From an uncultured Acidimicrobiales bacterium (GTDB lineage Bacteria; Actinomycetota; Acidimicrobiia; Acidimicrobiales; SHLQ01), in assembly GCA_938038785.1 (NCBI GenBank), contig CALHTB010000009.1, positions 51,513-115,512 of the forward strand: a stretch of DNA of 64,000 nt. The letters are read 5' to 3'. Under the pieces are notes generated by a model. The model was given only the letters and a program-made list of their open reading frames with translations. It was not told the origin of the DNA and did not search any database. Position numbers and translations under genes: made by a program. This document shows positions 34,780-54,405 of the stretch, piece by piece. Numbering within the stretch: position 1 is the stretch's first letter; each line of letters opens with the position of its first letter.

Positions 34780-34787
34780 GAGACACC

Positions 34788-36437: not shown

Positions 36438-37904
36438 ATGACATCGACTGCAATTCCAGAAGGCGCTCATCTCATTGGTGGCGAGTGGATCTCCACCGGG
36501 TCTTCGACCACCACGAGCATTAACCCGGCCCGCCCAGACGAACCCGTGGGCGATCATCCCGTCGGGGATGCATCAACGGCAGCTGATGCTGTTTCGGCGG
36601 CTGTCGATGCGCTTTCATCATGGCGCAACGCCGGATACAAGGTCCGAGCGGCGGTCCTCGAGAAGGCTGCGATCTTGTTCGAAGAGCGAGCCGACGAGCT
36701 CGCCATGATCGGCACCCTCGAAGAGGGCAAGATGTTGGGCGAGATGCGTGGAGAGGCAATGCTCTCGGCCGAGACCTGCCGCTATCAGGCGGGCATAATC
36801 AAGATGCCCACCGAGCGCATCTACCCCACGGGTAAGCCGGGCGAGACAATCCGCACACTGCGTGCTCCGCTAGGCGTTGTCGGCGTGGTGACGCCGTGGA
36901 ACTTCCCAATTCTCATTCCGGTGTGGAAGATCGCTCCGGCCCTGGCTGCTGGCAACACGGTCGTGTGGAAGACCGCCAGCAACACTCCCCTGGTTTCGGT
37001 AGCGATCGCCAAGGTGTTCGAAGACGCCGGAGTGCCGGCCGGTGCGCTCAATTTGATCCTCGGGCCGGGCTCGATGGGCGGCGCAATGATTGAAGACCTT
37101 CGCGTCGATGGCGTGACCTTCACCGGCTCGGTGCCGGTTGGCTTTGGTATTCGCGATGCCGTCACCGCACGCAATGGCCGCGTTCAGCTCGAACTCGGCG
37201 GCCACAACCCGGCCATCGTGTTCGATGATGCGAACCTCGACCTTGCGGTTCCGCAGATCGTTGCTGGCGCCATGGGTTCAACTGGACAAAAGTGCACCGC
37301 TACCCGACGCATCATTGCCGTGGGCGGGGTGTACGACGAGCTGGTCGAGCGACTTGGTCAGGGCGTTCAAGCGTTGAAGATCGGTGATGGGCTCGATCCT
37401 GACGCTGCGATTGGTCCGATCGTTGCTCCGCGGGCACGAGCCGAAGTAGCCGAGGGCCTCGAAAAGGCGATCTCCCAAGGCGCTGAGGTCGTCGCCACCG
37501 CCGACACGCCCGATACCAGCGAGTGCTTCTTCGCTCCGACGTTGCTTACCGGCACGACCGAGCTCGATATCTGGACCGAAGAGGTCTTTGGCCCAATCAG
37601 CACGGTGGTCAAGGTCGACAGTGACGATGAAGCCTTCGCATTGGCCAACAACACCGAGTTTGGGCTCTCCGCATCGGTGTTCACAACCGACATGTGGCGT
37701 GTGGACCGCGCAGTCAACACGCTCGAAGCGGGCATCATCAAGATCAACGCCCCAACCACAGGCTCTGAGCTGCACGTGCCGTTCGGCGGAGAGAAAGCGT
37801 CGTCAGGACACGCCCCTCGCGAGCAAGGCGACACCGCCCACGACTTTTTCACCCGGACCCGTTCGGTCTACATCAACCCAGGTAGCCCCAACCCGTACGC
37901 GTAA
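36438..37904 (+). CDS. NAD(P)-dependent aldehyde dehydrogenase
   Basis: 488 aa. Catalytic Glu LELGGHNP, catalytic Cys GQKCTATRR, cofactor-binding block PWNFP and FTGS. Confidence 0.9.
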   Translation: MTSTAIPEGAHLIGGEWISTGSSTTTSINPARPDEPVGDHPVGDASTAADAVSAAVDALSSWRNAGYKVRAAVLEKAAILFEERADELAMIGTLEEGKMLGEMRGEAMLSAETCRYQAGIIKMPTERIYPTGKPGETIRTLRAPLGVVGVVTPWNFPILIPVWKIAPALAAGNTVVWKTASNTPLVSVAIAKVFEDAGVPAGALNLILGPGSMGGAMIEDLRVDGVTFTGSVPVGFGIRDAVTARNGRVQLELGGHNPAIVFDDANLDLAVPQIVAGAMGSTGQKCTATRRIIAVGGVYDELVERLGQGVQALKIGDGLDPDAAIGPIVAPRARAEVAEGLEKAISQGAEVVATADTPDTSECFFAPTLLTGTTELDIWTEEVFGPISTVVKVDSDDEAFALANNTEFGLSASVFTTDMWRVDRAVNTLEAGIIKINAPTTGSELHVPFGGEKASSGHAPREQGDTAHDFFTRTRSVYINPGSPNPYA

Positions 37905-37929
37905 CCCGTACGCCCTTTAGGAGCGTGAG

Positions 37930-39096
37930 TTAGCGCCGTAGAAGTCGCGCCGACAATACCCAGACGAGCAGTGCCCCGGGGATGGTCGTCACGGCGATTG
38001 CTGCGCCAACGGTCATTGCATCGGTATCTGCCATGAAACCGACCGCCAACGGGGCAATGAGCAACATGACTCGCGTGCCGGCCGTCAGTCCGCCTAGTGC
38101 ACTTGCTGGTTGTGGGTGCTGGGCGGCTGCGTCGTAGAGTTGCGGGAACATCACTGACACACCGAGGCCAGCGATGAACAGGCCGACGAAGACCGCCGCT
38201 GTTGCGGGAATGACGGTGGCGATCAACGTGCCGATTGCAGCGAGCATGGTGGCTCGCCGCAGGACCGTCGATGAGCCGATCCGTTCGACGATGGCGTCGC
38301 CGGAGAACCTGCCGGTGACCATTCCCGAGGTGAACGCGACGTAGGCCACCGCGGCCAGGCCAGCGGATGCGCCAAGGTCGTCGGTAAGTCGGAAGGCGGC
38401 CCAGTCGCTGTTGATCATCTCGGGCAGAATCGCAGCTCCACCCAATGCAGCGAACGCAACGACGGCCGTCCGTCCGGCGCTACGAGTGTTGGCTGCCGGC
38501 GTGTCAGCGACGTCATCTTCGGGAGGCGAATCGGTAGTGAGCAGACCAGGCCCGACGTACAGCAGCGTTGCCGCTAGAACGAGCGCCGCACCGACCAGAT
38601 GAGCACGGAGATCGACGCCAAGCGACGCCATTATCGATGCAACCACGGCACCCACGACCGTTCCGAGGCTCCACATGCCGTGCAAGCGGTTCATGACTGG
38701 GCTGTTTCGACGAGCACTCAGTACCGAGCCTTGGACATTCATCGAGACGTCCACGATGACGTCGCCGATCGAGAGCGCGCCCAGGACCAAAAGCAGCACC
38801 CACCATGTTGGGCTGAATGCAACCAGCGGAAGCAAGACGACAAGGCACATAGCGCCGTAGATCATGGCGTTGCGAGTTCCGTAGCGTTCGACGATCGGGC
38901 CTTGCACGATGCTGCCGACCACACCGAAGCCGGTCGCGATGGCAATGATCAATCCGATGGTTCCGAGTGTGACATCCAAACGGTCGCGAATGCCGGGCAG
39001 CCGAGGCACGTACGAGGCAACGACGGCACCGTTGACAAAGAACTGGACAGCGATGGCCTTGAGGGCGCGATGTTCGGTGGGGTTCAGGCCATTCAT
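37930..39096 (-). CDS. MFS transporter
   Basis: 388 aa, 12 TM-like hydrophobic profile. Confidence 0.82.
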   Translation of the reverse strand: MNGLNPTEHRALKAIAVQFFVNGAVVASYVPRLPGIRDRLDVTLGTIGLIIAIATGFGVVGSIVQGPIVERYGTRNAMIYGAMCLVVLLPLVAFSPTWWVLLLVLGALSIGDVIVDVSMNVQGSVLSARRNSPVMNRLHGMWSLGTVVGAVVASIMASLGVDLRAHLVGAALVLAATLLYVGPGLLTTDSPPEDDVADTPAANTRSAGRTAVVAFAALGGAAILPEMINSDWAAFRLTDDLGASAGLAAVAYVAFTSGMVTGRFSGDAIVERIGSSTVLRRATMLAAIGTLIATVIPATAAVFVGLFIAGLGVSVMFPQLYDAAAQHPQPASALGGLTAGTRVMLLIAPLAVGFMADTDAMTVGAAIAVTTIPGALLVWVLSARLLRR

Positions 39097-39167
39097 TACG
39101 TTCTTAGTGCCCCGAGATTCACTGGCTCAGACTAGGTTCTCGGGTAGCCGTCACCTCAGGAGCCTCA

Positions 39168-39935
39168 ATGAAAATCGTTGCCCACTTGCATCCCCAGCAC
39201 GCCAGCTATAACCAGATCCGCGAAGCCGCAATTCAGGCCGAGGAGATGGGCTTCGACGGCATCTACAACTGGGACCACTTCTATCCGTTGTATGGCGAGC
39301 CTGACGGTGAGCACTTCGAGGCGTGGACAATGCTCGCATCATGGGCTGAAGTCACGAGCAAGGTCGAGATTGGCTGCCTCGTCACGTGCAACTCCTACCG
39401 CAACCCTGAACTGCTCGCTGATATGGCTCGAACGGTTGACCACATCTCCGATGGACGGCTTGTGCTGGGCATTGGTTCGGGCTGGTTTGAGCGCGACTAC
39501 GACGAGTTTGGCTACGAGTTTGGTACTGCCGGGTCACGACTGAACGACTTGCGGGACGCGCTGCCGCGAATCGAAACCCGGATGAGCAAGCTGAACCCGC
39601 CACCCAAGCGCAAGATCCCGCTTCTTATCGGCGGTGGTGGCGAGAAGAAGACGCTCCAGTACACGGCCCGCCACGCCGACGTGTGGCACTTCTGGTGGGG
39701 CGACGAGTGGGAGCGCAAGAACGGCATCCTCGAGCAGTGGTGTGCCAAGGTCGACCGTGACCCCGGCGACATCAGCCGCTCGGTAGGTGTCGACACCGAC
39801 AAGGTCGAGGACTGGGACGCGCTGTTCACTGACCTGGCGGCCGCAAACGTGCACGAGATCACCCTCGGAACTGGTGGCCCCGACTACAAGATGGACCAGA
39901 TGCAGCGTTTCCTCGACTGGCGCGACAGCCTGTAG
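39168..39935 (+). CDS. LLM-class (luciferase-like) F420-dependent oxidoreductase
   Basis: 255 aa. DHF.P...E....EAWT.L...A..T..I.IG.LV....YR.P..LA....T.D..S.GR..LG.G.GW pattern, typical of the short F420-dependent LLM clade. Confidence 0.82.
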   Translation: MKIVAHLHPQHASYNQIREAAIQAEEMGFDGIYNWDHFYPLYGEPDGEHFEAWTMLASWAEVTSKVEIGCLVTCNSYRNPELLADMARTVDHISDGRLVLGIGSGWFERDYDEFGYEFGTAGSRLNDLRDALPRIETRMSKLNPPPKRKIPLLIGGGGEKKTLQYTARHADVWHFWWGDEWERKNGILEQWCAKVDRDPGDISRSVGVDTDKVEDWDALFTDLAAANVHEITLGTGGPDYKMDQMQRFLDWRDSL

Positions 39936-39974: not shown

Positions 39975-40727
39975 TCAGGAAAGGATGCCCGGGAGCGGTG
40001 GACGAACGGTGCGTCCGCCGTCGATGGTGACGACTTGGCCGGTCACAAACCGGCTTTCATCGCCGGCGAGCCACACGACGACATCGGCAACATCTGATGG
40101 GGCTCCGACTCGGCCAATTGGGTGCAGCTTCGCGAGCTCGTCGATGACCATCTCGCGGTCGGGGTGGCTGTCGACGTAGGACGCGTTGAGCGGAGTGTCT
40201 ATCCAGCCTGGTGCCACTGCGTTGCATCGGATATTCATCGGCCCGAGGTCGATCGCAGTAGCGCGGGTTAGCCCGTGGACGCCCGACTTTGTGGCGGCGT
40301 ACGCCGAGTGATGTGGGTTGCAGCGGTCGCCCTCGATCGAGCCGACGTTCACAATCGAGCCGCCGGTTTCGTTCGCTGCGAGATGCGCTGACGCATGTTT
40401 GGTGACAAGCATCGGGCCGGTGAGGTTGATGGCCAGCATGCGGTCCCACGTCGACCGGTCATGGTCGGCAACCGACTCTTCGAACATGATGCCTGCGTTG
40501 TTCACGATGATGTCGAGGCGACCGTGCTTCGCCACGATCTCGGCGATGGCAGCCCCGACCGACTCCTCATTCGACACATCGAGGGTCAACGATTCATGGG
40601 TCGGCGACGGATAGAGGTCACCCACGACAACAGTGGCGCCAGCTGCGGCGAGGCCATCTGCGATCGCAGCCCCGATACCTTGCGCTCCTCCGGTAACGAG
40701 GGCAACTCGGTTGGCTAGCTTGCTCAT
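39975..40727 (-). CDS. SDR-family oxidoreductase
   Basis: 250 aa. TGGAQGIG cofactor motif, NNAG, catalytic S...YAATK. 4-nt overlap with the upstream SDR gene. Confidence 0.9.
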   Translation of the reverse strand: MSKLANRVALVTGGAQGIGAAIADGLAAAGATVVVGDLYPSPTHESLTLDVSNEESVGAAIAEIVAKHGRLDIIVNNAGIMFEESVADHDRSTWDRMLAINLTGPMLVTKHASAHLAANETGGSIVNVGSIEGDRCNPHHSAYAATKSGVHGLTRATAIDLGPMNIRCNAVAPGWIDTPLNASYVDSHPDREMVIDELAKLHPIGRVGAPSDVADVVVWLAGDESRFVTGQVVTIDGGRTVRPPLPGILS

Positions 40728-41605
40728 CCTGCGACGTATCCTCCGTCGATTGGTAGGGCGACGCCCGTGATGTGGCTCGATGCGTCGCTTGCAAGAAACA
40801 GCATCGACTTTGCGATCTCGTCTGGTGAGGGAATCCGACCCTCAGGGATGCCTGCGATGTTCGCCGCGAAGACATCCTCGGGAGTGCGCCCGGTCTTGTC
40901 ATGTCCGCTCACAAGCATTGGGGTATCCACGGCCCCAGGGCACAGGGCGTTAATGCGGATGCCCTCGGAAGCGTGGTCGAGGGCCATCGACTTGGTGAGC
41001 TGCACCACGGCACCTTTTGAGGCGCAGTACGCGGGCAAGCCAGCGCTCCCAACGAGGCCGACGTTCGAGGCAAGATTGACGATGGTGCCCTTATTCGCAG
41101 CAACTTCCGTGCTGATCCCCACTTCGCGATCGAGTGGCTCAACGTTTCTATTCCCAGCAACTTCCGTGCTGATCCCCACTTCACTATCGGTCGGCCTTGC
41201 TTGCAGCCGCATTTGTCGAACCGCAGCCCTCGACATGAAGAACACGCTGTCGACGTTCACGCGCATGTTCTGATACCACTCGTCGTCGGTGGTCTCGGTG
41301 GCGTCGCCGCGTGTAATGGTGCCCGCAACGTTCGCGAGAATGTCGACGCGCCCAAATTCGGCCGCTGCGTACGCAACGAGCTCGGCGCAGAAGGCAGAGT
41401 CAGTGACGTCGCCAAGTTTGATTCGGGTGTCCCCTCCAACTGAAGCAATAGCTGCTGCGGTTGCTTCGGCACCGGCGCTCGAACGTCCCGACAGGACAAC
41501 CTGCGCCCCGGCGTCTGCGAACGCCTTTGCAGTCGCCGCGCCGATTCCCGAAGTTGCCCCCGTGACGATCGCAACCTTGCCACCAAGGCCACTCATGTGA
41601 ACCAC
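40724..41605 (-). CDS. SDR-family oxidoreductase carrying a ~40-aa repeat-containing insertion
   Basis: 293 aa. TGATSGIG, catalytic S...YCASK. Between the helix ending MRLQ and the strand TIVNLAS lies the insertion ARPTDSEVGISTEVAGNRNVEPLDREVGISTEVAANKG. Confidence 0.85.
   Translation of the reverse strand: MVHMSGLGGKVAIVTGATSGIGAATAKAFADAGAQVVLSGRSSAGAEATAAAIASVGGDTRIKLGDVTDSAFCAELVAYAAAEFGRVDILANVAGTITRGDATETTDDEWYQNMRVNVDSVFFMSRAAVRQMRLQARPTDSEVGISTEVAGNRNVEPLDREVGISTEVAANKGTIVNLASNVGLVGSAGLPAYCASKGAVVQLTKSMALDHASEGIRINALCPGAVDTPMLVSGHDKTGRTPEDVFAANIAGIPEGRIPSPDEIAKSMLFLASDASSHITGVALPIDGGYVAG
41099..41182. repeat. in-frame direct repeat, 57-bp period (27-nt identical core x2), inside the SDR gene
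   Basis: agcaacttccgtgctgatccccacttc occurs at 41099-41125 and 41156-41182. It encodes EVGISTEVA twice. Confidence 0.9.
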
Positions 41606-41613
41606 CCAAGAAA

Positions 41614-41658
41614 TCTAGAGGCTGTAGCCCACGTCAGGCGTGGGCTACAGCCTCTAGA
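41614..41658. other. 45-nt perfect hairpin (20-bp stem, 5-nt loop) between mttB-like and SDR genes
   Basis: tctagaggctgtagcccacg-tcagg-cgtgggctacagcctctaga. It lies 44 nt after the mttB-like stop (41702) and 9 nt before the SDR start (41605). On the minus strand it is followed by TTTCTTGGG. Confidence 0.85.
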
Positions 41659-41701
41659 ACTCGAAATGCTGATGGAAATCACTGAAGTCCCTCCGAATTG
41701 T

Positions 41702-43231
41702 TCATCGCAATCCCTCCGGGATTGTTGCTCGCTTGCGGTCGCGAAACTCGCCGAGTTCTTCGAGCTTGGCCGAATCCATGGCGGGCTCTTCGTAGCTGGC
41801 GAGGGTCTTCTTGGCCATGGCGATGCCACGCGTGTTCGCGTCTACTCGCCCGGCGGCATTCCAATTCTCGTAGGCATCGCCATCCATGAGCTCGGGCATG
41901 AAGAACGCCGTCTCGAAATTCGCCAGCGTGTGCTGGGTGCCGAGGTAGTGATCGCCAGGATCGATCTCGCGGACGGCGTCCATTGCGGGGTCGAGCTCGT
42001 CCATGTTCACGCCTGAGCCGAGGCGGTACATCATGCGCATCTGTTCCCCGTCGAGCATCGCCTTGGAGTAGCTCTGGCACAAGGCCGATTCGAGGTAACC
42101 CGTCGTCGAGAGCACAAAGTTCGCTCCGGCCATGAGCACTCCATACATGTTGCGGGCAGCTTCGTATCCAGCCTGGGCATCGACCAGCTTCGAGCTGGAA
42201 CACCCGCCGCTGCAGCGCCACGGCAACTTGTAGAAGCGGGCCAGCTGGCCGACGAGCATGTTGATGTGGTCGATCTCGGGTGTCCCTGCCAGGGGCGCCC
42301 CTGAGTTCATTGCGACGGTGGCTGTCCATTGCCCGTAGACCGACGGAGAACCCGGACGGACCAGCTGCATGAACGCAACACCAGCTAGGGCCTCGGCGCT
42401 GAGCTGGGCAACCGCCCCAACGGTGCTAGCAGGAGTGCTTGCTCCACCGAGAACAAACGGGCTGAAGAGCATGGCCTGGTTCGACGATGCGTATACCTTG
42501 ACCGCATCGAGCATCGTTTGATCCCACACGAGGGGGCTGTTGCAGTTGGCGAGCGACGTGCTGACCGTCGTGTCCTTGATGTAGTCGTGACCAAAGACGA
42601 TGCCCATCATGTGCAGCGAGTCCTCAGCGCGTTCGCGTGAAGTCACCGAACCCATGAGTGGCTTATCGCTGTAGCGAAGCAGGCTGTAGGTCATCTCGAG
42701 GTGGCGGTGCGGAACGGGGACGTCCATTGGCTCGCACAACACGCCACCCGCCATGTGCATTGAGGGTTCGAGGTGGGCGATCTTCGCGAAATTGTTGAAG
42801 TCGTCGAGCGTCGCATGACGTCGCTTGTTGTCCATGTCGAGGACAAACGGCGCCCCGTACGCAGGGGTGAACACGGTCTTTTGGCCACCGAGTGACACAG
42901 CCCGACCGGGCGTTCGGGACTCCATGGTGTACTCGGCGGGCGCAGTCGAGATCAGCTCCATCAGCATCTCGCGACCGATGCGAACTCGATAGCCCTCGAC
43001 CGATGCACCAGCCTCTCGCCAGATTTTGATCGACTCGTCGTCTCGAAACTCGATTCCGACTTCTTCAAGCAAGGTCATCGACGCATCGTGGATGCGCAGT
43101 AGCTGTTCGTGAGGGACAAGATCAAGGTAAGGCATGCCACGAGTGAGCTCGGGCAACCACGGCGTCTCGTCGGCTTCGCGAGCTGCTCGGCGTGCGCTTC
43201 GCCCCCGTCGTTTCGGTGCGGTGTCGGTCAT
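41702..43231 (-). CDS. MttB-superfamily (COG5598) methyltransferase, non-pyrrolysine type; quaternary-amine (betaine-type) methyltransferase candidate
   Basis: 509 aa uninterrupted ORF with no in-frame TAG. The length and conserved TIM-barrel blocks resemble trimethylamine methyltransferase homologs (IH.AS..LLEE.G..F, CNSPL.WD..ML, GAP.aG.PE, YE.WN..G). The start overlaps the LysR stop (ATGA). Confidence 0.85.
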   Translation of the reverse strand: MTDTAPKRRGRSARRAAREADETPWLPELTRGMPYLDLVPHEQLLRIHDASMTLLEEVGIEFRDDESIKIWREAGASVEGYRVRIGREMLMELISTAPAEYTMESRTPGRAVSLGGQKTVFTPAYGAPFVLDMDNKRRHATLDDFNNFAKIAHLEPSMHMAGGVLCEPMDVPVPHRHLEMTYSLLRYSDKPLMGSVTSRERAEDSLHMMGIVFGHDYIKDTTVSTSLANCNSPLVWDQTMLDAVKVYASSNQAMLFSPFVLGGASTPASTVGAVAQLSAEALAGVAFMQLVRPGSPSVYGQWTATVAMNSGAPLAGTPEIDHINMLVGQLARFYKLPWRCSGGCSSSKLVDAQAGYEAARNMYGVLMAGANFVLSTTGYLESALCQSYSKAMLDGEQMRMMYRLGSGVNMDELDPAMDAVREIDPGDHYLGTQHTLANFETAFFMPELMDGDAYENWNAAGRVDANTRGIAMAKKTLASYEEPAMDSAKLEELGEFRDRKRATIPEGLR

Positions 43232-44085
43232 GATCGATCTCCTAGCGAGCTGGTGAGTGCCTCTCGGAGCGCTGCGAGTGCGTCAGGGTCGCCACCGGCG
43301 CCGGTGCGGACGACTTCGGTGAGTTTGGGAAGAGCGATCTTCTTGCCGCGGGTCCAGGGCACCATGGCGTTGGTGATGTTTCGAGTGTTCAACGCGCACA
43401 CGCCAAGGCCGGACTCAACCGCAGCTTGGACACCGGAGAGCATCGGGCACTCGAGTACGGTTCGCCACCGCAGTCCACTGTTCTTGAGCGCTTCTTCCGC
43501 GCTGTCGAGATAGACGAGACCTGGTCCGAACGACACGACAGGAATCACCTCATCGGCGCCAAAGTCGGCCTCGGCACCTTGGACCCACGTGAGAGGTTCG
43601 GTCCACAACGCAACGTCATCGGGGCGAACGTCGCTGGCCTCGACCTGTACGACGGCGAGGTCCACTTCACCGTCATCGAGCCACTCGCGTACAACACCTG
43701 AAAGCTGGACCCGAACGTCAAGGCGAATTTGGGGGTACATGCGGCCGAACCGAGCGAGCACATCTGCAAGCTCGCCACCGCGAAGGTCTTCGTTGGTACC
43801 GAGGCGAATAACGCCAGCGAGGTCGGAACGGCTGAGGTGTTCAACCGCCTCGTCATGAGCGTCGAGCATCCGCTCGCCGTACAGCAGCAGGTCGCGGCCG
43901 TCGGGTGTGGCCTCGATCTCACTGCCACCACGCTTGACCAGTTCAAGCCCAACACGTTCTTCGAGACGCTTGATCTTCCAACTGACCGCACTCTGAGTCA
44001 TCCCCAACTGCGCAGCAGCCTCGGTAAAGGTCCCGGCTTCGACAACGCTCCGCAATGCCCGGAGTGATTCCACATCTAGCTTCAC
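43228..44085 (-). CDS. LysR-family transcriptional regulator
   Basis: HTH LRALRSVVEAGTFTEAAAQLGMTQSAVSWKIKRLEE. The preferred start is GTG at 44085, with an AGGAG SD about 9 nt upstream. The track start at 44175 would add 30 atypical residues. Confidence 0.85.
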   Translation of the reverse strand: MKLDVESLRALRSVVEAGTFTEAAAQLGMTQSAVSWKIKRLEERVGLELVKRGGSEIEATPDGRDLLLYGERMLDAHDEAVEHLSRSDLAGVIRLGTNEDLRGGELADVLARFGRMYPQIRLDVRVQLSGVVREWLDDGEVDLAVVQVEASDVRPDDVALWTEPLTWVQGAEADFGADEVIPVVSFGPGLVYLDSAEEALKNSGLRWRTVLECPMLSGVQAAVESGLGVCALNTRNITNAMVPWTRGKKIALPKLTEVVRTGAGGDPDALAALREALTSSLGDRS

Positions 44086-44290
44086 TGTTTCCCGCTCCTG
44101 CGTCGCTCCCGACAATCGCTCATTCGCTTCGCTCGGTGCGCTCTGCGGAATGCCGGAGGCCGCGAGCCGCTCCATCGTCCCTCAGTCGCTCCGGTGCTGG
44201 CGTCCGGCCGTGCGTATACAGAATGCAGGGGGAACCGAGTCTGCTCCATCGTGCAACCATGACATAACTTGACATTCGTTGCCACCCGGC

Positions 44291-45334
44291 ATGACACTTC
44301 CTTATATGCCTCCTGCACACAACGCCGCCTCCGAAACGAAAGACTTCCACGGAGTCATCGTTGCGCTTGCAATGCCGATGACCGATGCGGGAGAGCGCAT
44401 CGATGAACCGGCGCTCCTCGATCACATCGACTGGCTCATTGACGCAGGAGTGCACGGCATTCTCGTGCTGTCGGGAACAGGCGAGTATGCCTATCTACGG
44501 CCTGAGGAGAAGCGACGCGTCGTCGAGCTCTGCCTCCCGCACATCGACGGGCGTGTTCCGGTCATGGTGCAAAGTTCGGAGATGAGCGTCACCGACACGG
44601 TCGAATCGTCAAAGCACGCCGTCGACTTCGGTGCTGACGCACTCATGGTGCTGCCACCCTGGCTCGAGAGCCCGTTTGAACGTGGTGTGATGTACCACTA
44701 CGAGCGAGTCGCCCAATCGGTCGCTACCGACATCGTGCTCTACAACACACCGGCAGCTAGCGGTGTCGAGATCACCCCTGCGATGTACCGGCAACTCCTC
44801 GCAATCGACAACGTTCGCTATATGAAGGACAGTCAGGGCGACCTCAGCCGCATTCAAAAGCTCGCCGCGATTAGCGAGGGCAGTAACGCCAAGGTGCTGT
44901 GTGGTGTTGACCCACTCGCTCCCTATGCCCTGATGGCGGGCGCTGTTGGCATGATCTGGGGCTGTGCGAACATCATGCCTCACGAAGCGGTGCAGCTCGT
45001 CGAGCACATCGAAGCCGGACGTCTGCCCGATGCGCTCGAGCTGTGGAAGGCCATGTGGCCGATCAACGCGTTCATGTGGGAGAACGAACTCGACGTCGGC
45101 TTCCTTCCAGGAGTGAAGGCGGCGACCGAGATGGTCGGCCGTCAGATGGGTCCCGTTCGACGACCGCAGATGCCGGTCACCGGAGCTGCACGATTGGCCA
45201 TTGAAGCGGGCCTGTCGACATTGCCGATTAACGGGGTGCAGCGATCGCGACTGAAATGGCGCGAGTGGGAAGACGAACAGGACTGGCTGGTTAAGCGGAC
45301 CGAGGGTTCACTCTCGGAGGGGGTTGCACGATGA
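44291..45334 (+). CDS. DapA/HypD-family class I aldolase-type enzyme (dihydrodipicolinate synthase family)
   Basis: About 347 aa. Blocks FHGVIVALAMPMT..G.ID...L...I.WLI..GV.GI.V.G.TGE and YN.P. The start is uncertain (44279 TTG, 44291 ATG or 44306 ATG). Confidence 0.85.
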   Translation: MTLPYMPPAHNAASETKDFHGVIVALAMPMTDAGERIDEPALLDHIDWLIDAGVHGILVLSGTGEYAYLRPEEKRRVVELCLPHIDGRVPVMVQSSEMSVTDTVESSKHAVDFGADALMVLPPWLESPFERGVMYHYERVAQSVATDIVLYNTPAASGVEITPAMYRQLLAIDNVRYMKDSQGDLSRIQKLAAISEGSNAKVLCGVDPLAPYALMAGAVGMIWGCANIMPHEAVQLVEHIEAGRLPDALELWKAMWPINAFMWENELDVGFLPGVKAATEMVGRQMGPVRRPQMPVTGAARLAIEAGLSTLPINGVQRSRLKWREWEDEQDWLVKRTEGSLSEGVAR

Positions 45335-46941
45335 GCGCTGCAAAGAAGAAGGCGGCAAAGAAGAGCGCCGTGAAGAAGCCAGCCAAGAAGGCGGCGGCAA
45401 AGAAGAAGGCACCAACGAAGAAGGCACCGACGCGTGTCGCCAAGAAGAAGGCTGCTTCCCTGTCGCCTGCGGCCAAGCTCGCGAAGTCGATCCATATGCC
45501 GACGAACGCCATGATCGGCGGCCGGTCGGTTCCTGCAGCGAGCGGCAAGACGTTCGCCACCATCAACCCAGCTACCGGCGAGGTCCTCGCCGAGGTCGCC
45601 GACTGCGGCTCGATGGATGTCGATCGTGCCGTCGCAGCTGCTCGTTCTGCCTTTCACGGTCCCTGGAGCCGGCTGACCCCCGGCGAACGCAAGCGTGTCA
45701 TGCAGCGCTTTGCCACCCTCATCGAGGCGCACGCGACCGAACTCGCAACGATCGAGACGCTCGAGGGCGGCAAACCAATCACCGACACCGCCAACATCGA
45801 TGTCGCCGACACGATCGCCACCATTCGCTGGCACGCCGAGGCCGCTGACAAGATCAACGACCAGCTCACTCCGGCGGGCATGGGCATCGTGTCGATGGTG
45901 GTTCGCGAACCTATTGGGGTTGTCGGCGTGGTTCTTCCGTGGAACTTCCCGCTCATGATGGCCGCGTGGAAGCTCGGGCCGATTCTGGCCACCGGCAACA
46001 CCTGTGTACTCAAGCCCGCCGAGCAAACGTCCATCACCACCCTGCGCCTCGCCGAGCTGGCCACCGAGGCCGGCATCCCCGACGGCGTAATCAACGTCGT
46101 GCCCGGCTTTGGCCCAGCTGTCGGCGAACCACTCGGACGGCACCCTGACGTCGACGCCGTGGCATTCACCGGCTCAACCGAAACCGGCCGACGTTTCCTG
46201 AACTACTCGGCCGAATCGAACCTCAAACGCGTGCTGCTCGAATGCGGCGGGAAGAACCCGTTCGTAGTGATGCACGATGCTGACGACCTCGATGCGATCG
46301 CCGAGCATGCAGCCAACGCCATCTATTGGAACGGCGGGCAGAACTGCTCTTCGAACTCACGGCTGATCGTTCACCGGTCTCTCAAGGACGAACTGCTCGG
46401 GCTTCTGCTCGAGAAGAGTCGCGAATGGACCGTCGGTGATCCGCTCGACCCCAACACACGAATCGGTGCGATGATCGAACCCGAGCACCTCGACAAGGTG
46501 CTCGACAACATCAACTCGGGCCATGTCGAAGGTGCCGATTGTGTGCTGGGTGGCAACCAGGTTCGTATGGCGTCGGGCGGCTATTTCGTCGAGCCGACCA
46601 TCTTCGACAACGTGACCCCGCAGATGCGCTTGGCACGCGAAGAGATCTTCGGTCCGGTGCTCAGCGTGATCACCTTCGACCAGCCCGAAGAGGCAATTCA
46701 GATCGCCAATGACACGGCCTACGGACTGTCGGCTTCGGTATTCACTTCGGACCTGCGGACAGCGCACCTTGCGGCTCGGTCGATTCGAGCAGGCACGGTC
46801 ACCGTCAACACCTACGGCGAAGGCGACGTTGCCACTCCGTTCGGTGGCTTTGGACTCTCCGGCTTCGGAGGACGAGACAAGAGCCTCCACGCACACGACC
46901 AATACACCGAGCTCAAAACCATCTGGATCGATCTGGGATAG
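45331..46941 (+). CDS. aldehyde dehydrogenase with a Lys/Ala-rich N-terminal tail
   Basis: 536 aa. The ATG overlaps the upstream stop (ATGA). The first ~50 aa are MSAAKKKAAKKSAVKKPAKKAAAKKKAPTKKAPTRVAKKKAAS. The ALDH core follows, with PWNFP, catalytic Glu LECGGKNP and catalytic Cys GQNCSSNSR. Confidence 0.85.
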   Translation: MSAAKKKAAKKSAVKKPAKKAAAKKKAPTKKAPTRVAKKKAASLSPAAKLAKSIHMPTNAMIGGRSVPAASGKTFATINPATGEVLAEVADCGSMDVDRAVAAARSAFHGPWSRLTPGERKRVMQRFATLIEAHATELATIETLEGGKPITDTANIDVADTIATIRWHAEAADKINDQLTPAGMGIVSMVVREPIGVVGVVLPWNFPLMMAAWKLGPILATGNTCVLKPAEQTSITTLRLAELATEAGIPDGVINVVPGFGPAVGEPLGRHPDVDAVAFTGSTETGRRFLNYSAESNLKRVLLECGGKNPFVVMHDADDLDAIAEHAANAIYWNGGQNCSSNSRLIVHRSLKDELLGLLLEKSREWTVGDPLDPNTRIGAMIEPEHLDKVLDNINSGHVEGADCVLGGNQVRMASGGYFVEPTIFDNVTPQMRLAREEIFGPVLSVITFDQPEEAIQIANDTAYGLSASVFTSDLRTAHLAARSIRAGTVTVNTYGEGDVATPFGGFGLSGFGGRDKSLHAHDQYTELKTIWIDLG

Positions 46942-48254
46942 TGGAAATCTCGCTGACGCCTTCGTACGACAACAACAATGGGTGGCAGGAGATCTTGCCC
47001 GCGCCAGCCGAAGCCACCGTGCTCACCGGAGACCTCACCTGTGACTACCTGGTCATCGGCGCCGGGTATTCAGGTCTTTCGGTAACCCGCCGTCTCGCAG
47101 AACTCGACCCTTCCGCGTCGGTCGTGCTCGTCGAAGGCGACCGCATCGGCAACAACGCCGCCGGGCGCTCATCGGGTTTCGCAATCGACCACGCGCACAA
47201 CCTTCGGGCCAAGAGCTTTGCCGACGCGAAGGCTGCTGCGATTGCCGGCGTCACCATGAACCGCGCCGGGCTCGACTACCTCGACCAGACCATCACCGCT
47301 CACAACATCGATTGCCAATGGGTCAAGGAAGGCAAATACCACGCCGCTGCGACCAGCCGTGGTGAAGGCATGCTCGACAGCTTCGCTGAGAGTCTCGACG
47401 CCATCGACGAGGACTACACGATGCATCACGCGGCCAAGTGCGAGGAGGTGTTCGGAACCAGGTACTACACCAAGGCACTCCACGCACCGCACAGCTACCT
47501 CGTGCAACCTGCGGCCATGGTGCGAGGTCTGGCCGGCACCATGCCCGAGAACGTATCGATTTACGAAAGCTCGATGGTGAAGTCGGTCGAATACGGCACT
47601 CCACACACCGTGCACACCCAACGAGGCTCAGCGACCGCCCCGGTCCTCGTGCTCGCAACAAACGGGTTCACCGAGGGGTTTGGCTTCCTTCAAAAGCAGC
47701 TCATCCCACTCATCACCTGGGGCTCGCTCACACGCGAGCTCACCGACGCCGAGTCCGAGCAACTTGGCGGCCACCCGAGCTACGGGATCATCGCCGCCCA
47801 CCCCGCTGGTACTTCGGTTCGACGGGTCACCACCCCAAACAACCGCATCCTGGTACGGAACATCTTCAGCTTCAGCAAGCGATCCGACTTCACCAGCCGA
47901 GTGTCGTGGGCAGCAAAGTCCCACCGCAAGGCCTTCGACAACCGTTGGCCCGAATTGTCCGGCGTTCCGTTTTCGCACAGCTGGGGTGGCGCGCTGAGCC
48001 TCAGCCGAAACGGCGAGCCGGTCTTCGGCGAGTTGCGGCCAAACGTATACGGCACCGTCGTGCACAACGGTGTTGGGATCGCTCGCGGCACGATCAGCGG
48101 AAAGCTGCTCGCCGAGATGATCATGGGAGAGGATTCCGAGCTGCTTCGTCAAATGCAGGCGAAGGGCCGACCCAATACCAACCTGCCCTTCCAAGACCTT
48201 GGTGTTCGCATCAATGCACGTGCACGCCGCCTAATTGCTGGACGCGAGGAATAG
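46941..48254 (+). CDS. FAD-dependent oxidoreductase (DAO family)
   Basis: 437 aa. The GTG start overlaps the ALDH stop. Dinucleotide motif DYLVIGAGYSGLS. DAO-type C-terminal region. Confidence 0.85.
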   Translation: MEISLTPSYDNNNGWQEILPAPAEATVLTGDLTCDYLVIGAGYSGLSVTRRLAELDPSASVVLVEGDRIGNNAAGRSSGFAIDHAHNLRAKSFADAKAAAIAGVTMNRAGLDYLDQTITAHNIDCQWVKEGKYHAAATSRGEGMLDSFAESLDAIDEDYTMHHAAKCEEVFGTRYYTKALHAPHSYLVQPAAMVRGLAGTMPENVSIYESSMVKSVEYGTPHTVHTQRGSATAPVLVLATNGFTEGFGFLQKQLIPLITWGSLTRELTDAESEQLGGHPSYGIIAAHPAGTSVRRVTTPNNRILVRNIFSFSKRSDFTSRVSWAAKSHRKAFDNRWPELSGVPFSHSWGGALSLSRNGEPVFGELRPNVYGTVVHNGVGIARGTISGKLLAEMIMGEDSELLRQMQAKGRPNTNLPFQDLGVRINARARRLIAGREE

Positions 48255-48256
48255 CT

Positions 48257-49360
48257 ATGAAGATTTCTGCCATCTCGGCCTATTCGGTCGAATTAGCGCT
48301 CAAAGAGGGGGCTTATAGCTGGGGCACCCAGTCGTTCCCGTCGTTCGCCTCGACCGTCGTTGTCGTCGACACCGACGAAGGGCTTCGCGGGTACGGCGAG
48401 ATCTGCCCCCTCGGCCCGGGTTACATGCCATCGTTTGCCGAAGGTGCCCGTGCTGGCATGAAGGCGATCGCCCCACAGCTCATAGGCCTCGACCCACGCG
48501 AGATCGACGTCGTGTCGAACGCGATGGACATCGCATTGAAGGGCCATCCCTACGCCAAGTCCGGCATAGACATGGCCATCTGGGACGTTGCTGCCAAAGC
48601 AGCGGGTGTTCCGGTTACGACACTGCTTGGCGGCTGTTATCGCGATGCGGTGAAGCTGTTTCGGGTGATCAGCCGGGACACTCCCCAAGAGATGGTCGAG
48701 CGCCTGTGTGAATATCGCGGCGAAGGCTTCGAGCAGTACCAGATGAAGGTCGGCGAACGCCTCGACACGGACCTCGCCCGTATGGAAGCGGTCACCGACG
48801 CCATTCTCGATAGTGAGACACTGGCAGCGGACGCGAACACGGGGTGGCGGCAGCATGAGGCCATGAGGGTCGCCCACGAGATGGCGGACCGTCCGCTCTA
48901 CATCGAGCAACCCTGCCTCACTTATGAGGAATGCTTGGCCGTACGCCCGCACCTCAACCGTCCACTCATCCTCGACGAAGTGATGGATTCTCGGCACGCG
49001 ATTCGCCGGGGCGCAGCTGACGGGGCGATGGACGTGATCAACCTCAAGATCAGTCGGTTCGGAGGTCTGAGCGGCGCTCGCCGGGCGCGCGATCTGTGCG
49101 TCGACCTCGGGATCGCAATGACGATCGAGGACACTTGGGGTGGAGAGATCGCCACCGCGGCAATAGCGCACCTTGCTGCGTCTACACCAGACGGTTTCCA
49201 CTTTCAGTCCAGTGCCTTTCACGACTACCACAGCCAGCCAATCGCCTCTGGCGGGCCGGTCGTGGCCGACGGACATATGTCGGTCAGCACCGAACCCGGT
49301 CTCGGTGTCGAACCGGCCTGGGACTTGTTGGGCGCTCCCCTATTCACAATCTCCAGCTAA
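48257..49360 (+). CDS. enolase-superfamily enzyme (MLE-subgroup-like racemase/epimerase/dehydratase)
   Basis: The start is MKISAISAY, with SD GAGGAA. The track ORF from 47438 is an out-of-gene extension. Metal ligands sit in ADANTGW, YIEQP and ILDEV. Base candidates are QMKVG and NLKISRFGG. 367 aa. Confidence 0.88.
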   Translation: MKISAISAYSVELALKEGAYSWGTQSFPSFASTVVVVDTDEGLRGYGEICPLGPGYMPSFAEGARAGMKAIAPQLIGLDPREIDVVSNAMDIALKGHPYAKSGIDMAIWDVAAKAAGVPVTTLLGGCYRDAVKLFRVISRDTPQEMVERLCEYRGEGFEQYQMKVGERLDTDLARMEAVTDAILDSETLAADANTGWRQHEAMRVAHEMADRPLYIEQPCLTYEECLAVRPHLNRPLILDEVMDSRHAIRRGAADGAMDVINLKISRFGGLSGARRARDLCVDLGIAMTIEDTWGGEIATAAIAHLAASTPDGFHFQSSAFHDYHSQPIASGGPVVADGHMSVSTEPGLGVEPAWDLLGAPLFTISS

Positions 49361-49388: not shown

Positions 49389-50225
49389 ATGCCACCTCTC
49401 GTCCTAGGAGCTATCGCTGCACTTTGCATTGGCATCAGCGACTCGTTCGGGCGAGCAAGCTCCAAGCGGGGCAGCTCGATTAGCCACGTCGCCACGCAGA
49501 TGTTCGTGGGCATCTTCGTGTCGATTCCCTTGCTTTGGGTGTTCGACAGCACCCTGCGCACGAGTGACGCGATCATGGGAGCGCTCTCCGGTGCGTGCGT
49601 TGGCATCGGGCTATCGATCGTCTACAAGGCCATGGCCGACTCGTCGTCTGCAATCGCTGCACCCACCGCAGGCGTCATCGCCGCTGTTCTTCCTTTGCTG
49701 TTCGATGTCGGGTTCCGAGGCGCAACGCTGAGTGTTCTCACCGGTATCGGTTGCGTCATCGCAATCGTGGCACTGGCCATCGTCAGCTACAGCCCGTCAC
49801 TCGGCGCGGACGCGATCCGCAGCGGGCTCGGCAAGGCGGTCATCGGAGGCATCTTCTTCGGAGCGACGATCATCTTTCTTGGCGATACCTCCGATGGCGC
49901 CGGGGTGTGGCCGGCGCTGATACAGCGCGTCGTTGCGTTCCTGTCGATGATTCCCCTGGCCGCCCGCGGTGCCGTGCCCGTGTTTCTTCCGCCATCACTG
50001 CGAACGTTCGGCGTGCTTTCCGGCATCACCGGAGCGCTCGGTATGGCGTCGTTTGCCGTCGGCAGCCAACAGGGCGACCTCGGGACGGTGTCAGTGGTTG
50101 CGGCCACCTATCCCGCGGTCATCGTTGTGCTGACCACGCTCTTTGACGACGACGAGATTCGTTGGTGGCAGGGCCTTGGCATCATCGGCGCGATTGCGGG
50201 CACGGCGCTCATAGCCTTGGGTTGA
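49389..50225 (+). CDS. DMT-superfamily (EamA-like) membrane transporter
   Basis: 278 aa. About 10 TM helices in two similar halves. Confidence 0.65.
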   Translation: MPPLVLGAIAALCIGISDSFGRASSKRGSSISHVATQMFVGIFVSIPLLWVFDSTLRTSDAIMGALSGACVGIGLSIVYKAMADSSSAIAAPTAGVIAAVLPLLFDVGFRGATLSVLTGIGCVIAIVALAIVSYSPSLGADAIRSGLGKAVIGGIFFGATIIFLGDTSDGAGVWPALIQRVVAFLSMIPLAARGAVPVFLPPSLRTFGVLSGITGALGMASFAVGSQQGDLGTVSVVAATYPAVIVVLTTLFDDDEIRWWQGLGIIGAIAGTALIALG

Positions 50226-50950
50226 TGTCGGAGCTTTCATTTCAGCGGGATGCCTTCGTAGATGGGGTTCGACGAGTGTTTCCGCTTGCGGTCCCCGGTG
50301 CCCCATTCGGGTTTGTGCTGGGTGTGCTCATCGCCGAAGAGGAACTCTTGCCGTCCTTCGCTTCTTGGGCATCCTCGTGGATAATCCTCGCCGGAGCTGC
50401 ACAGCTGGCAGCGTTGACGTTGCTTGCTGACAACGCATCAGCCCTAGTCGTCATTACAACAGTGTTCCTCATCAACTCCCGCCACGCGATGTATTCAGCT
50501 GCCCTCCGCGGACGACTGTCTGAGTATTCGATCGCGACACGAGTGCTGATGTCTTACTTGTTGATCGATCAACAATTCGCCATCAACGAAACGGCGCCCG
50601 AGCTCGAGTCGCCAACGCTGCGATATCGGCTGTGGCACTACCTAGGAGCCGGTGCGCTCTTGTTCGTGATGTGGAATGTTGCCGTCGCTCTGGGTGTGAT
50701 CGGCGGCAATTGGGTCCCTGAGAGTTGGGGACTGAGCTTTGCTGTTCCACTCTTGTTCGGCGGCCTGCTCGTGCTGTCCCTTAGGGATTTTCCAGGAATG
50801 GTTGCTGCGGTAGTCGGCGCAACCGTCGCTGTCCTCGGTCGAACGCTTCCGCAGGGTTCTGGACTACTTCTGGGAATTGTCCTCGGTGTCGCCGCTGCGG
50901 GGTTTCTCGCTGAACGACGGGGCGATACCGATCAAGAGGTTGTCGCATGA
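50225..50950 (+). CDS. azlC: AzlC-family branched-chain amino acid transporter subunit
   Basis: The start is MSELSFQRDAF (the ATG overlaps the upstream TGA). Block INSRHAMYSAAL, typical of AzlC. It is followed by azlD with a 4-nt overlap. Confidence 0.82.
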   Translation: MSELSFQRDAFVDGVRRVFPLAVPGAPFGFVLGVLIAEEELLPSFASWASSWIILAGAAQLAALTLLADNASALVVITTVFLINSRHAMYSAALRGRLSEYSIATRVLMSYLLIDQQFAINETAPELESPTLRYRLWHYLGAGALLFVMWNVAVALGVIGGNWVPESWGLSFAVPLLFGGLLVLSLRDFPGMVAAVVGATVAVLGRTLPQGSGLLLGIVLGVAAAGFLAERRGDTDQEVVA

Positions 50951-51252
50951 GGTTCTGGCTGATCATTATCGGATCGGGACTGGTCACCTACCTGACGCGC
51001 GCGTCCTTCATCGTCTTCGGTGACAAGGTTCCTCTCCCGCCGGTTGTAGAGCGATCGCTGAAGTACGTCGCCCCCGCATCCTTTGCTGCTATCTCGGTTC
51101 CGCTCTTTCTCGGCGGCGATGGCATCGCCGGGTTCGGCGAGGACATCCCTCGGATCATTGCTGGTGCCGCTGCGGCCGCAGTTATCTGGAGGTGGAAGAA
51201 TATCCCCGCGAGTCTGGTCGTTGGAATGGGGCTCTTCTGGCTCCTTGGGTAA
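50947..51252 (+). CDS. azlD: AzlD-family small membrane protein
   Basis: 101 aa. N-terminal W.....G..TY..R block. The position after azlC fits. Confidence 0.78.
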   Translation: MRFWLIIIGSGLVTYLTRASFIVFGDKVPLPPVVERSLKYVAPASFAAISVPLFLGGDGIAGFGEDIPRIIAGAAAAAVIWRWKNIPASLVVGMGLFWLLG

Positions 51253-53761: not shown

Positions 53762-53938
53762 ATGTTTGTCAAGCTACTCAGTGCGCTCCACGCACGCTCT
53801 AACGAGGACCGCGGCGCGGTTGCTGCCGAGTACGCAGTGCTCCTCGCGCTCATCGCAGTCGCACTTGTGGGCATTATCGGCGGCCTCACCGGCGGCATCG
53901 TCAACGCTTTCCAGGCTGCGATCGACGTCCTGCCGTAG
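53762..53938 (+). CDS. flp: Flp-family type IVb pilin precursor
   Basis: 58 aa, below the ORF-track cutoff and hand-translated: MFVKLLSALHARSNEDRGAVAAEYAVLLALIAVALVGIIGGLTGGIVNAFQAAIDVLP. It has the Flp processing motif G/AVAAEY followed by a hydrophobic helix. SD GGAGGA. Confidence 0.88.
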   Translation: MFVKLLSALHARSNEDRGAVAAEYAVLLALIAVALVGIIGGLTGGIVNAFQAAIDVLP

Positions 53939-53956
53939 GCAGGAACCAAGACAACT

Positions 53957-53987
53957 GTGGGTTGGGTCGTTTCGCGATCCAACCCAC
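53957..53987 (+). other. intercistronic hairpin after flp
   Basis: gtgggttgg-13 nt-ccaacccac, 19 nt after the flp stop, with no T-tract. It could act as an mRNA-stabilising or attenuating element. Confidence 0.5.
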
Positions 53988-54003
53988 ATACGTCAGGACC
54001 GTG

Positions 54004-54405
54004 ATGTCAGTTTTCTCCTTCCTTAAGCAGCGCAGCCACGATGATCGCGGCGCGATTGCAGCGGAGTTCGCGCTCATGCTGCCGTTGTTGCTTCTGTTGG
54101 TCTTCGGCATGTTGCAATTGGGCCTCACCTATCAGCGCCAGGAAGCAGTCCATGCCGCGGCACGCGAAGGAGCCCGCGTCGCGTCCCTTCCCACATCGAG
54201 CACCGCCGAGGCATGTGCGCGAACAACCGCCACGCTCGTCGGGACCGGATTCACCGCTACGCCGACGTGCCAAGTATCGGGCGACTGCTCGACCAGCACC
54301 GGGTCCGTCGTCGTGACGGTCACCGTGGCAAACACCATCGACATTCCATTCTTCGGAGTCTCGACATTTGATCTCACTGGCAGAGGAGACTTCCGATGCG
54401 AGTAG
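54004..54405 (+). CDS. tadE: TadE-like pseudopilin
   Basis: MSVFSFLKQRSHDDRGAIAAEFALMLPLLLLLVFG carries the TadE/Flp-like G/AIAAEF processing motif and hydrophobic helix. SD AGGA sits 5 nt upstream. Confidence 0.82.
   Translation: MSVFSFLKQRSHDDRGAIAAEFALMLPLLLLLVFGMLQLGLTYQRQEAVHAAAREGARVASLPTSSTAEACARTTATLVGTGFTATPTCQVSGDCSTSTGSVVVTVTVANTIDIPFFGVSTFDLTGRGDFRCE

Follow-up and report, generated by a model that had tools for sequence, protein, structure and literature searches.

The systems closest to the locus described here are the hpb clusters for hydroxyproline betaine catabolism, found in Pelagibaca bermudensis, Paracoccus denitrificans and Cereibacter sphaeroides, and the MtgBCD(E) system of Ruegeria pomeroyi. 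The Paracoccus denitrificans enzyme HpbD (PDB 4E8G) is a hydroxyproline betaine 2-epimerase and proline betaine racemase, PDB 2PMQ represents a related proline betaine racemase, and HpbD is needed for growth on D-proline betaine (Kumar et al., PMC3950512). Work of 2025 showed that in aerobic R. pomeroyi, proteins of the methyltransferase family PF06253 need MtgC, a corrinoid protein, and MtgD, a pterin-binding protein; both are encoded at unlinked sites and also act as a split methionine synthase, and the genes for RamA and DUF1638 lie at other places again. As many as seven PF06253 paralogs in one genome probably share the MtgC/MtgD core (Mausz et al., PMC12478193). The present analysis concerns a stretch of 64,000 nucleotides (hereafter the window, meaning this whole stretch) from contig CALHTB010000009.1 of an uncultured Acidimicrobiales bacterium, in which the gene for an MttB-superfamily methyltransferase of PF06253 lies divergent from an operon resembling those for hydroxyproline degradation. 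The window lies in a metagenome contig of 142.5 kb from the European Nucleotide Archive (ENA; ERZ6864144:c_000002911987) and has a G+C content of approximately 61%.

The reading favored here, with a probability of about 0.55, is that the genes of the locus jointly break down an N-methylated, hydroxylated betaine of the proline type, the likeliest substrate being 4-hydroxyproline betaine and/or proline betaine. As in the hpb clusters, a lower pathway of DapA-family enzyme, aldehyde dehydrogenase (ALDH) and FAD oxidase is combined with LysR-type control, and all families of the window module, namely MttB, two short-chain dehydrogenases/reductases (SDRs), FAD oxidase, ALDH and DapA, surround rsHpbD and the transporter hpbH-J in C. 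sphaeroides. Unlike the hpb clusters, the window encodes no Rieske HpbBC and a demethylase dedicated to N-methylproline (HpbA) was not identified in it, its enolase is cis-3-hydroxyproline dehydratase-like, and its host is an actinobacterium. Inspection of open reading frames (ORFs) and Pfam matches located every gene listed in the original prediction, an earlier annotation made from the sequence alone, and the features of the module are as follows:

39975-40727, minus strand: SDR oxidoreductase 'a' of 250 aa, at the end of the LysR-MttB-SDR-SDR unit (PF13561, PF00106)
40724-41596, minus strand: SDR oxidoreductase 'b', 290 aa, its Pfam match split by an insertion of ~35 aa
41614-41658, minus strand: perfect hairpin of 45 nt between MttB and the SDR genes, terminator- or attenuator-like, with 20-bp arms and a 5-nt loop
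41702-43231, minus strand: non-pyrrolysine MttB-superfamily methyltransferase, 509 aa (PF06253 in Pfam, 639 bits, profile positions 2-500 of 500)
43228-44175, minus strand: LysR-family regulator, its TGA stop overlapping the MttB ATG (ATGA)
44176-44305, no strand: control region in the spacer from which LysR-MttB and the DapA operon diverge, from reading of the sequence
44306-45334, plus strand: DapA/DHDPS-family enzyme, 342 aa (PF00701, 169 bits)
45331-46941, plus strand: NAD(P)-dependent ALDH, 536 aa (PF00171), with a 4-nt overlap with the DapA gene
46941-48254, plus strand: DAO-family FAD amine or amino-acid oxidoreductase, 437 aa (PF01266), with a 1-nt overlap with the ALDH gene
48257-49360, plus strand: enolase-superfamily enzyme of the MLE subgroup, cis-3-hydroxyproline dehydratase/epimerase-like (NF043002)
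49389-50225, plus strand: EamA/DMT transporter (Pfam)
50225-50950, plus strand: AzlC (Pfam)
50947-51252, plus strand: AzlD (Pfam)

The MttB-family protein and its conserved neighborhood

The MttB gene is uninterrupted over 509 codons and thus contains no in-frame TAG, in agreement with the original prediction. The protein scores 263 bits against TIGR02369, the model for pyrrolysine-type trimethylamine methyltransferases with a cutoff of 525, and matches PDB 4YYC at 495 bits and DhMtgB (2QNE/9YCE) at 379 bits; on these profile and structure matches it classes as a bona fide non-pyrrolysine member of the MttB family. MtgB binds glycine betaine via Y97, F356, R312 and H348, and R312, the type of arginine that partners the substrate carboxylate, is kept in every characterized member; the substrates of all these enzymes are acidic quaternary amines (Picking et al., PMC13080624). 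Mapping of these residues by alignment to 2QNE/9YCE and by one wider alignment places Y97 and R312 at Y125 and R339 of the window protein, where both are retained, and finds H348 replaced by S375 and F356 by A383, so that two of the four glycine-betaine contacts are changed. The retention of R339 and Y125 suggests that the protein probably binds a carboxylated quaternary amine, and it is predicted to be a quaternary-amine:corrinoid methyltransferase for acidic substrates, with (hydroxy)proline betaine as the probable one. Assignment as MtgB proper was rejected on the two substitutions. The FVLS motif is invariant in all nine aligned sequences of the clade (at least 62% identity; from Acidimicrobiales, L041-L045 and Mesorhizobium), and a serine in place of H348 marks the clade as a whole at this level of identity. 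Histidine occupies the position in the other paralogs, including 4YYC, DhMtgB, the C. sphaeroides protein, the actinobacterial L037, the loci L028-L035 from Geminicoccus and other Alphaproteobacteria, and the Chloroflexota metagenome-assembled genome (MAG) L036. The window protein shares superfamily, predicted substrate class and the carboxylate-binding arginine with the proline betaine:corrinoid methyltransferase MtpB of Eubacterium limosum and with MtcB, MtyB and MthB (PMC13080624); it differs in that those enzymes belong to a strict anaerobe and feed the Wood-Ljungdahl pathway, where the N-methylproline product is not degraded further.

Scanning of species-representative genomes with the MttB protein yielded 36 loci (retrieved loci are cited here by L number), and at 78-92% identity the carriers are almost all MAGs labeled Acidimicrobiales or Acidimicrobiia. 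The set of LysR-MttB, two SDRs, DapA, ALDH and DAO recurs in several gene orders in approximately 25 Acidimicrobiales species, and also on unassigned metagenomic contigs and a Mesorhizobium plasmid. Linkage was counted by tblastn of the window proteins against all fetched loci, with a homolog defined by at least 50% identity and a denominator of 29 non-redundant loci having MttB at 60% identity or more, where contig ends explain many gaps. Homologs of LysR were found in 24 of the 29 loci, of ALDH in 23, of DapA in 22, of each SDR in 21 and of DAO in 17. The window-type enolase occurs in six, AzlCD in five to six and the DMT transporter in one, and these are therefore accessory genes. At least four gene orders keep the set, and that of the window is also found in L039 and L042. 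On a closed 5.39-Mb Acidimicrobiales chromosome (L038), DapA-ALDH-DAO-SDR-SDR-SBP is divergent from LysR-MttB, while L044 holds a single co-directional operon of seven genes, LysR-MttB-DapA-ALDH-DAO-SDR-SDR, and L045 has DapA-DAO-SDR-SDR divergent from MttB with no LysR and no ALDH. Plasmid pM0123d of Mesorhizobium amorphae carries a 65%-identical MttB at most 10 kb from FAD oxidase-DapA-ALDH genes, an SDR pair and a ProX-type betaine ABC transporter. The linkage counts and the survival of the set through rearrangement identify MttB, the two SDRs, DapA and DAO, usually with ALDH and LysR, as the conserved functional unit, and the expectation that MttB would remain tied to the divergent DapA/ALDH/DAO genes in relatives was borne out through rearrangements and across phyla. 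Two loci with the same synteny and MttB at 85-88% identity (L005 and L008) are binned as Verrucomicrobiales and Chthoniobacterales MAGs, likely through mis-binning or else very recent transfer. In the Mesorhizobium locus L047 (17938-19185), genes of the Xaa-Pro peptidase family, 4-oxalocrotonate tautomerase and hydantoinase/oxoprolinase flank the SDR pair, and an M24 creatinase/prolidase-like gene lies 12 kb upstream in the window (26511-27965); together these peptidase-type genes may represent a recurring neighbor of the module.

Two of the relatives connect the gene set directly to HpbD. In L043, a 66%-identical MttB adjoins an ortholog of HpbD that scores 531 bits to 4E8G and 420 bits to 2PMQ/4H2H (the last two presumably the Pelagibaca enzyme), with DapA-ALDH-DAO-SDR-SDR genes no more than 10 kb from MttB. 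Plasmid pB of C. sphaeroides 2.4.1 carries an operon of MttB-HpbD-SDR-SDR, in which 55 bp separate MttB from an enolase gene whose product scores 671 bits to 4E8G; genes for an FAD oxidase, ALDH, DapA and a GntR regulator are convergent to it, and a ProVWX-type transporter follows. By gene order, this enolase is RSP_4007, the characterized rsHpbD, and the transporter is hpbH-J, RSP_4000-3998. A candidate betaine demethylase is thus co-located with DapA, ALDH and FAD oxidase in an arrangement that is conserved and, in L043 and C. sphaeroides, linked to HpbD, as in an hpb cluster. The main text of Kumar et al. (PMC3950512) nowhere mentions a methyltransferase and assigns no role to it or to the SDRs. 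Literature searches on the C. sphaeroides neighbors RSP_4004-4008 returned the hpbD paper only, and none was found linking hydroxyproline betaine to MttB-family enzymes.

Pfam scans of the approximately 50 ORFs across the window detected no Rieske domain, and the only demethylase candidates it encodes are MttB, DAO and a distant SoxBDAG operon, making MttB as the replacement the most economical reading. The original prediction had put MttB forward as a possible substitute for the Rieske demethylase in a betaine-to-hydroxyproline/proline route. As a prediction from gene content, the replacement of the Rieske demethylase by MttB in a (hydroxy)proline-betaine route is well supported, because the gene set recurs and MttB and the SDRs stand in one operon with rsHpbD; the HpbD parallel did not survive for the enolase, as the window enolase is not HpbD.

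Corrinoid partners

The same Pfam scans found no B12-binding (PF02310/PF02607), pterin-binding/MtrH-like or RACo/RamA-like proteins in the window, and a six-frame search of the window and 40 loci for the cobalamin motif DxHxxG...SxL...GG gave no match in the window and a single match overall, in L037. A search of the window with Rfam revealed no cobalamin riboswitch and returned as sole matches two tRNA genes near the left end (553-627 and 1103-1175, minus strand). Another 7.5 kb of contig sequence, left of the window, likewise contained no partner genes. The Pfam and motif searches therefore agree with the earlier observation that no gene for a corrinoid protein, a methyl-corrinoid:tetrahydrofolate (THF) methyltransferase or a RamA-like activase lies within the 64 kb. 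Of the two explanations then offered, distal partners or direct methyl transfer to THF, the first matches the arrangement in R. pomeroyi (PMC12478193) and the second need not be invoked, since unlinked partners are documented.

By analogy, the corrinoid partners are expected to be encoded elsewhere in the genome, because an unlinked shared core is the published norm in aerobes and because the core is present in Actinomycetota. The actinobacterial MAG L037 (3345-10446) carries in one operon MtgC (PF02607 and PF02310), DUF1638, MtgD, RACo, an MttB paralog of 45% identity and MTHFR, an organization that mirrors the aerobic MtgBCD system of Ruegeria, and the named homologs of its MtgC at 84-96% identity are mostly labeled Acidimicrobiia bacterium. 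Like the MtgBCD(E) system of R. pomeroyi (PMC12478193), the window system has a PF06253 methyltransferase in an aerobe, is proposed to use shared, unlinked MtgC, MtgD and activase proteins, and would deliver the methyl group to THF; it differs in lacking the H348 and F356 residues and in its gene partners, which are of hydroxyproline rather than dimethylglycine/sarcosine type. In the Acidimicrobiales locus L039 (13226-18974), a CbiMQO-type cobalt ECF transporter is encoded directly downstream of the SDR pair, followed by a DAO gene and a reductive-dehalogenase-like gene (PF13486 and Fer4).

The divergent operon, the SDR pair and neighboring genes

The tightly overlapped divergent operon reported earlier, with DapA, ALDH, DAO and enolase followed by DMT and AzlCD, is present in full and in that order. 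The DapA-family protein is distant from true DapA, with its best PDB entry at 131 bits, and is a candidate pyrroline-4-hydroxy-2-carboxylate deaminase-type or aldolase-type enzyme. Its best plasmid homolog, from Leisingera (39% identity), adjoins a proline-racemase-family gene and an ALDH, which is a classical proline-racemase-type hydroxyproline cluster. The ALDH is nearest to PuuC/KauB-type aminoaldehyde dehydrogenases, scoring 539 bits against PuuC and 379 bits against GucD, a model for alpha-ketoglutarate-semialdehyde dehydrogenase; it was rejected as a curated equivalog of the latter enzyme, falling under every cutoff, and shares 58% identity with its counterpart in the hpb cluster of C. 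sphaeroides. The DAO protein gives weak matches to L-pipecolate oxidase and aminophosphonate oxidoreductase models and has no relatives in the PDB at E < 1e-10. In relatives, SBP_bac_5 or ProVWX-type ABC systems take the place of the DMT and AzlCD transporters. A locus on Agrobacterium tumefaciens pAt1D1609a (L050, 2202-12258) has LysR divergent from FAD oxidase-DapA-SDR-ALDH, its neighbors being genes for FolD, PurU, an FAD-dependent oxidoreductase of 815 aa and electron transfer flavoprotein alpha/beta, and looks like a methyltransferase-free cousin of the module tied to oxidative N-demethylation and C1-THF metabolism. The Leisingera and Agrobacterium contexts are both in line with a proline-type betaine as substrate.

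The last enzyme of the overlapped genes had been considered a possible HpbD-like betaine epimerase, an assignment that was abandoned. With 478.9 bits against NF043002, the window enolase falls narrowly under the curated equivalog cutoff of 500, and this family is nonetheless the closest. It matches PDB 4MGG, which we take to be the L. aggregata enzyme, at 403 bits and 50% identity, and the HpbD structures at 217 bits (4E8G) and 200 bits (2PMQ/4H2H). The motifs KVG, ADANTGW, EQPC, LDE and NLKIS, assumed here to hold the catalytic and metal-binding residues of the subgroup, align with 4MGG. The substrate-binding residues of pdHpbD include Trp312 and Asp293 (Kumar et al., PMC3950512). The window protein has a 3-aa deletion at the HpbD 'EGVW' loop, whose tryptophan is taken as Trp312 because it is the only one near that position, and retains the aspartate of the DxWGG motif, probably the equivalent of Asp293. 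By the yardstick set in the original prediction, the enzyme groups with a non-betaine function; with the tryptophan loop also lacking, it was rejected as HpbD. The dehydratase/2-epimerase LhpJ is located in the L-hydroxyproline cluster of Labrenzia aggregata (Watanabe et al., PMC5144071). The window enolase resembles LhpJ-type enzymes in its identity to 4MGG and the missing loop, and differs from them in its sub-cutoff score, in being dispensable in most relatives and in that no pyrroline-2-carboxylate reductase was identified near it. It may admit 3-hydroxyproline or serve as a 2-epimerase for non-betaine intermediates.

On the other strand, the ATGA overlap that couples LysR and MttB translationally was read in the sequence as previously described, and L038, L039 and L044 likewise show an overlap of LysR with MttB. 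No sigma-70 consensus was found on searching the control region, as expected for Actinomycetota. The 45-nt hairpin noted earlier is likewise present with a perfect stem, and is followed by a T-rich tail (TTTCTT); the 106-nt spacer between MttB and the SDR genes has a folding energy of -50.2 kcal/mol (z = -6.65). A repeated, repetitive extragenic palindromic (REP)-like element was rejected, as the arm sequence is single-copy in the window in a no-mismatch search, and in L039 and L042 the MttB and SDR genes overlap, leaving no space for a hairpin. The two SDR genes, previously reported as unexplained followers of the hairpin, are indeed present but are not incidental, since they belong to the conserved core. 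SDR 'a' is paired with SDR 'b' in every case, even where the pair has shifted into the DapA operon. The Pfam match of SDR 'b' falls in two stretches, residues 10-133 and 168-290, and the homologs encoded by relatives are 256 to 290 aa long. A PDB search with both proteins returned generic SDRs only and no functional lead.

Several other genes of the window lie around the module. A sarcosine-oxidase-like operon approximately 5 kb from the MttB module encodes SoxB (30102-31448), SoxD (31449-31784), SoxA (31900-34779) and SoxG (34788-35363), preceded by a divergent LysR gene (block 29169-35363); it could remove a second N-methyl group and is linked only in L001 and L004. An OpuA-type betaine ABC transporter (16062-23743) consists of an OpuAC binding protein, a CBS-domain ATPase and two permease ORFs of 811 and 821 aa, of which approximately 160 residues each match BPD_transp_1 and which may be fusions or over-extended ORFs. 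Directly downstream of the SDR genes, 36438-39935 holds genes for an ALDH, an MFS transporter and a luciferase-like monooxygenase, a block that is kept at 56-93% identity in L003, L004, L011, L014 and L015, with MFS and monooxygenase genes in L010, and that may form an extension of the catabolic island. On the right-hand side of the module, a LuxR-type two-component pair is followed by a Tad/Flp pilus locus (53766-62737) with TadE, TadG-like, RcpC/CpaB, CpaE-like ATPase, CpaF and two TadB/C genes with a VWA fusion.

Proposed pathway and alternative readings

In the proposed pathway, LysR, co-translated with MttB, would control both divergent units and sense the betaine or an intermediate. MttB would move one N-methyl group of the quaternary amine to Co(I) of a stand-alone MtgC-like corrinoid protein, from which an MtgD-like pterin-binding methyltransferase would pass it to THF, with a RamA/RACo-type activase repairing the cofactor; these MtgC-, MtgD- and RamA-like partners would be distal and common to other MttB paralogs. 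The DAO-family flavoenzyme would oxidize N-methyl-(hydroxy)proline by demethylation or ring C-N oxidation, and the DapA-family enzyme would handle its product through pyrroline-4-hydroxy-2-carboxylate deaminase-type chemistry or aldol cleavage. The ALDH would then oxidize the resulting aldehyde, DapA and ALDH together finishing the conversion to a central metabolite. At some step, the SDR pair would convert a hydroxyl or keto group of the ring, and the cis-3-hydroxyproline dehydratase/epimerase-like enolase and the DMT/AzlCD transporters would be lineage-specific add-ons. As the ALDH is nearer to the PuuC/KauB type, the lower pathway may differ from the textbook D-hydroxyproline route.

A number of observations weigh against a (hydroxy)proline betaine module. 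To our knowledge, the canonical route for hydroxyproline betaine offers no reaction for two SDRs, the ALDH scores aminoaldehyde dehydrogenases above the curated alpha-ketoglutarate-semialdehyde dehydrogenase models, close characterized relatives were not found for the DAO (in the PDB) or DapA proteins, and corrinoid partners were not found in the approximately 72 kb of contig inspected. The C. sphaeroides MttB belongs to another clade, being 46% identical with histidine at the serine position and threonine at the Y125 position, so that function is transferred by context and not by orthology. One and the same neighborhood has thus recruited two MttB clades, which makes the argument from context stronger and simple transfer by orthology weaker. 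In P. denitrificans, a Rieske double mutant does not grow on proline betaine, and the Rieske genes are induced approximately 10-fold in R. sphaeroides (PMC3950512). Demethylation in these organisms is thus proven for Rieske enzymes, and MttB could have a different substrate. The function proposed for the window MttB clade accordingly rests on comparative genomics.

Such a substrate could be another acidic hydroxylated quaternary amine, for example 3-hydroxyproline betaine, carnitine or a hydroxylated lysine/ornithine betaine, processed by a non-canonical lower pathway; in one variant, the N-methyl ring would be opened oxidatively and aldol cleavage would yield pyruvate and an N-methylaminoaldehyde leading to sarcosine. 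This would account for the closeness of the ALDH to PuuC/KauB/betaine-aldehyde-type enzymes, the distance of the DapA protein from characterized family members, the 3-hydroxyproline-type enolase, a conserved SDR pair that has no role in the published hydroxyproline-betaine pathway and the heterotetrameric sarcosine-oxidase operon 5 kb away (30102-35363). It is considered unlikely, as HpbD orthologs adjoin MttB in L043 and C. sphaeroides, ProX-type betaine/proline transporters flank the module in alphaproteobacteria, the best plasmid homolog of DapA stands in a classical proline-racemase-type hydroxyproline cluster and the Sox operon is linked in the closest relatives only. Together with the OpuA-type betaine transporter (16062-23743), the same SoxBDAG operon would also suit an ordinary glycine betaine methyltransferase (MtgB) that feeds the nearby sarcosine oxidase and stands beside the hydroxyproline-like operon incidentally, and this is the only function of the family shown so far in aerobes (PMC12478193). 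The replacement of H348 and F356, two of the four experimentally required contacts (PMC13080624), makes such an assignment very unlikely, as does the linkage to DapA, ALDH, DAO and the SDRs, which survives rearrangements and phyla where that to Sox and OpuA does not.

The lack of partner genes in the 64-kb window and within 10 kb on either side in the Acidimicrobiales loci is the sole support for an MttB working without a corrinoid protein and transferring the methyl group straight to THF or another acceptor. The chance of this is close to negligible given that every characterized family member methylates a corrinoid (PMC13080624, PMC8604678), that unlinked partners are documented in aerobes (PMC12478193), that Acidimicrobiia encode MtgC-DUF1638-MtgD-RACo operons and that the CbiMQO cobalt transporter directly follows the SDR genes in one relative (L039). 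A more elaborate scheme is a speculative one and quite unlikely to hold as a whole: the MttB clade and its linked SDR pair would constitute an undescribed cobalamin-dependent aerobic route for hydroxyproline-type betaines, in which one methyl group goes to methyl-THF and the N-methyl intermediate is degraded directly, without a second demethylase or 2-epimerase. After oxidative ring opening by DAO, elimination or cleavage by a DapA-type enzyme would release methylamine or an N-methylaminoaldehyde, the latter being oxidized by an ALDH of the aminoaldehyde type, and the route would have been spread by horizontal transfer between Actinomycetota and Alphaproteobacteria.

The component families are each known, and the puzzle of the missing partners is already solved in the literature; an MttB clade in place of the Rieske demethylase, the co-conserved SDR pair and the occurrence in Acidimicrobiia appear to be undescribed. 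Proline betaine and hydroxyproline betaine are common osmolytes of plants, algae and invertebrates, and their known aerobic breakdown begins with formaldehyde-releasing Rieske oxygenases. If the (hydroxy)proline betaine reading is true, a cobalamin-dependent start would save the methyl group as methyl-THF and would tie the turnover of proline-type betaine osmolytes to the supply of vitamin B12. The finding also flags a conserved SDR pair that lacks a known role. For one orphan MttB paralog among many, the reading would provide a function open to testing, with C. sphaeroides 2.4.1 as a genetically tractable host in which the methyltransferase gene adjoins hpbD, and it would take the aerobic MtgBCD system discovered in 2025 past glycine betaine and past Proteobacteria, to the abundant uncultured Acidimicrobiia.

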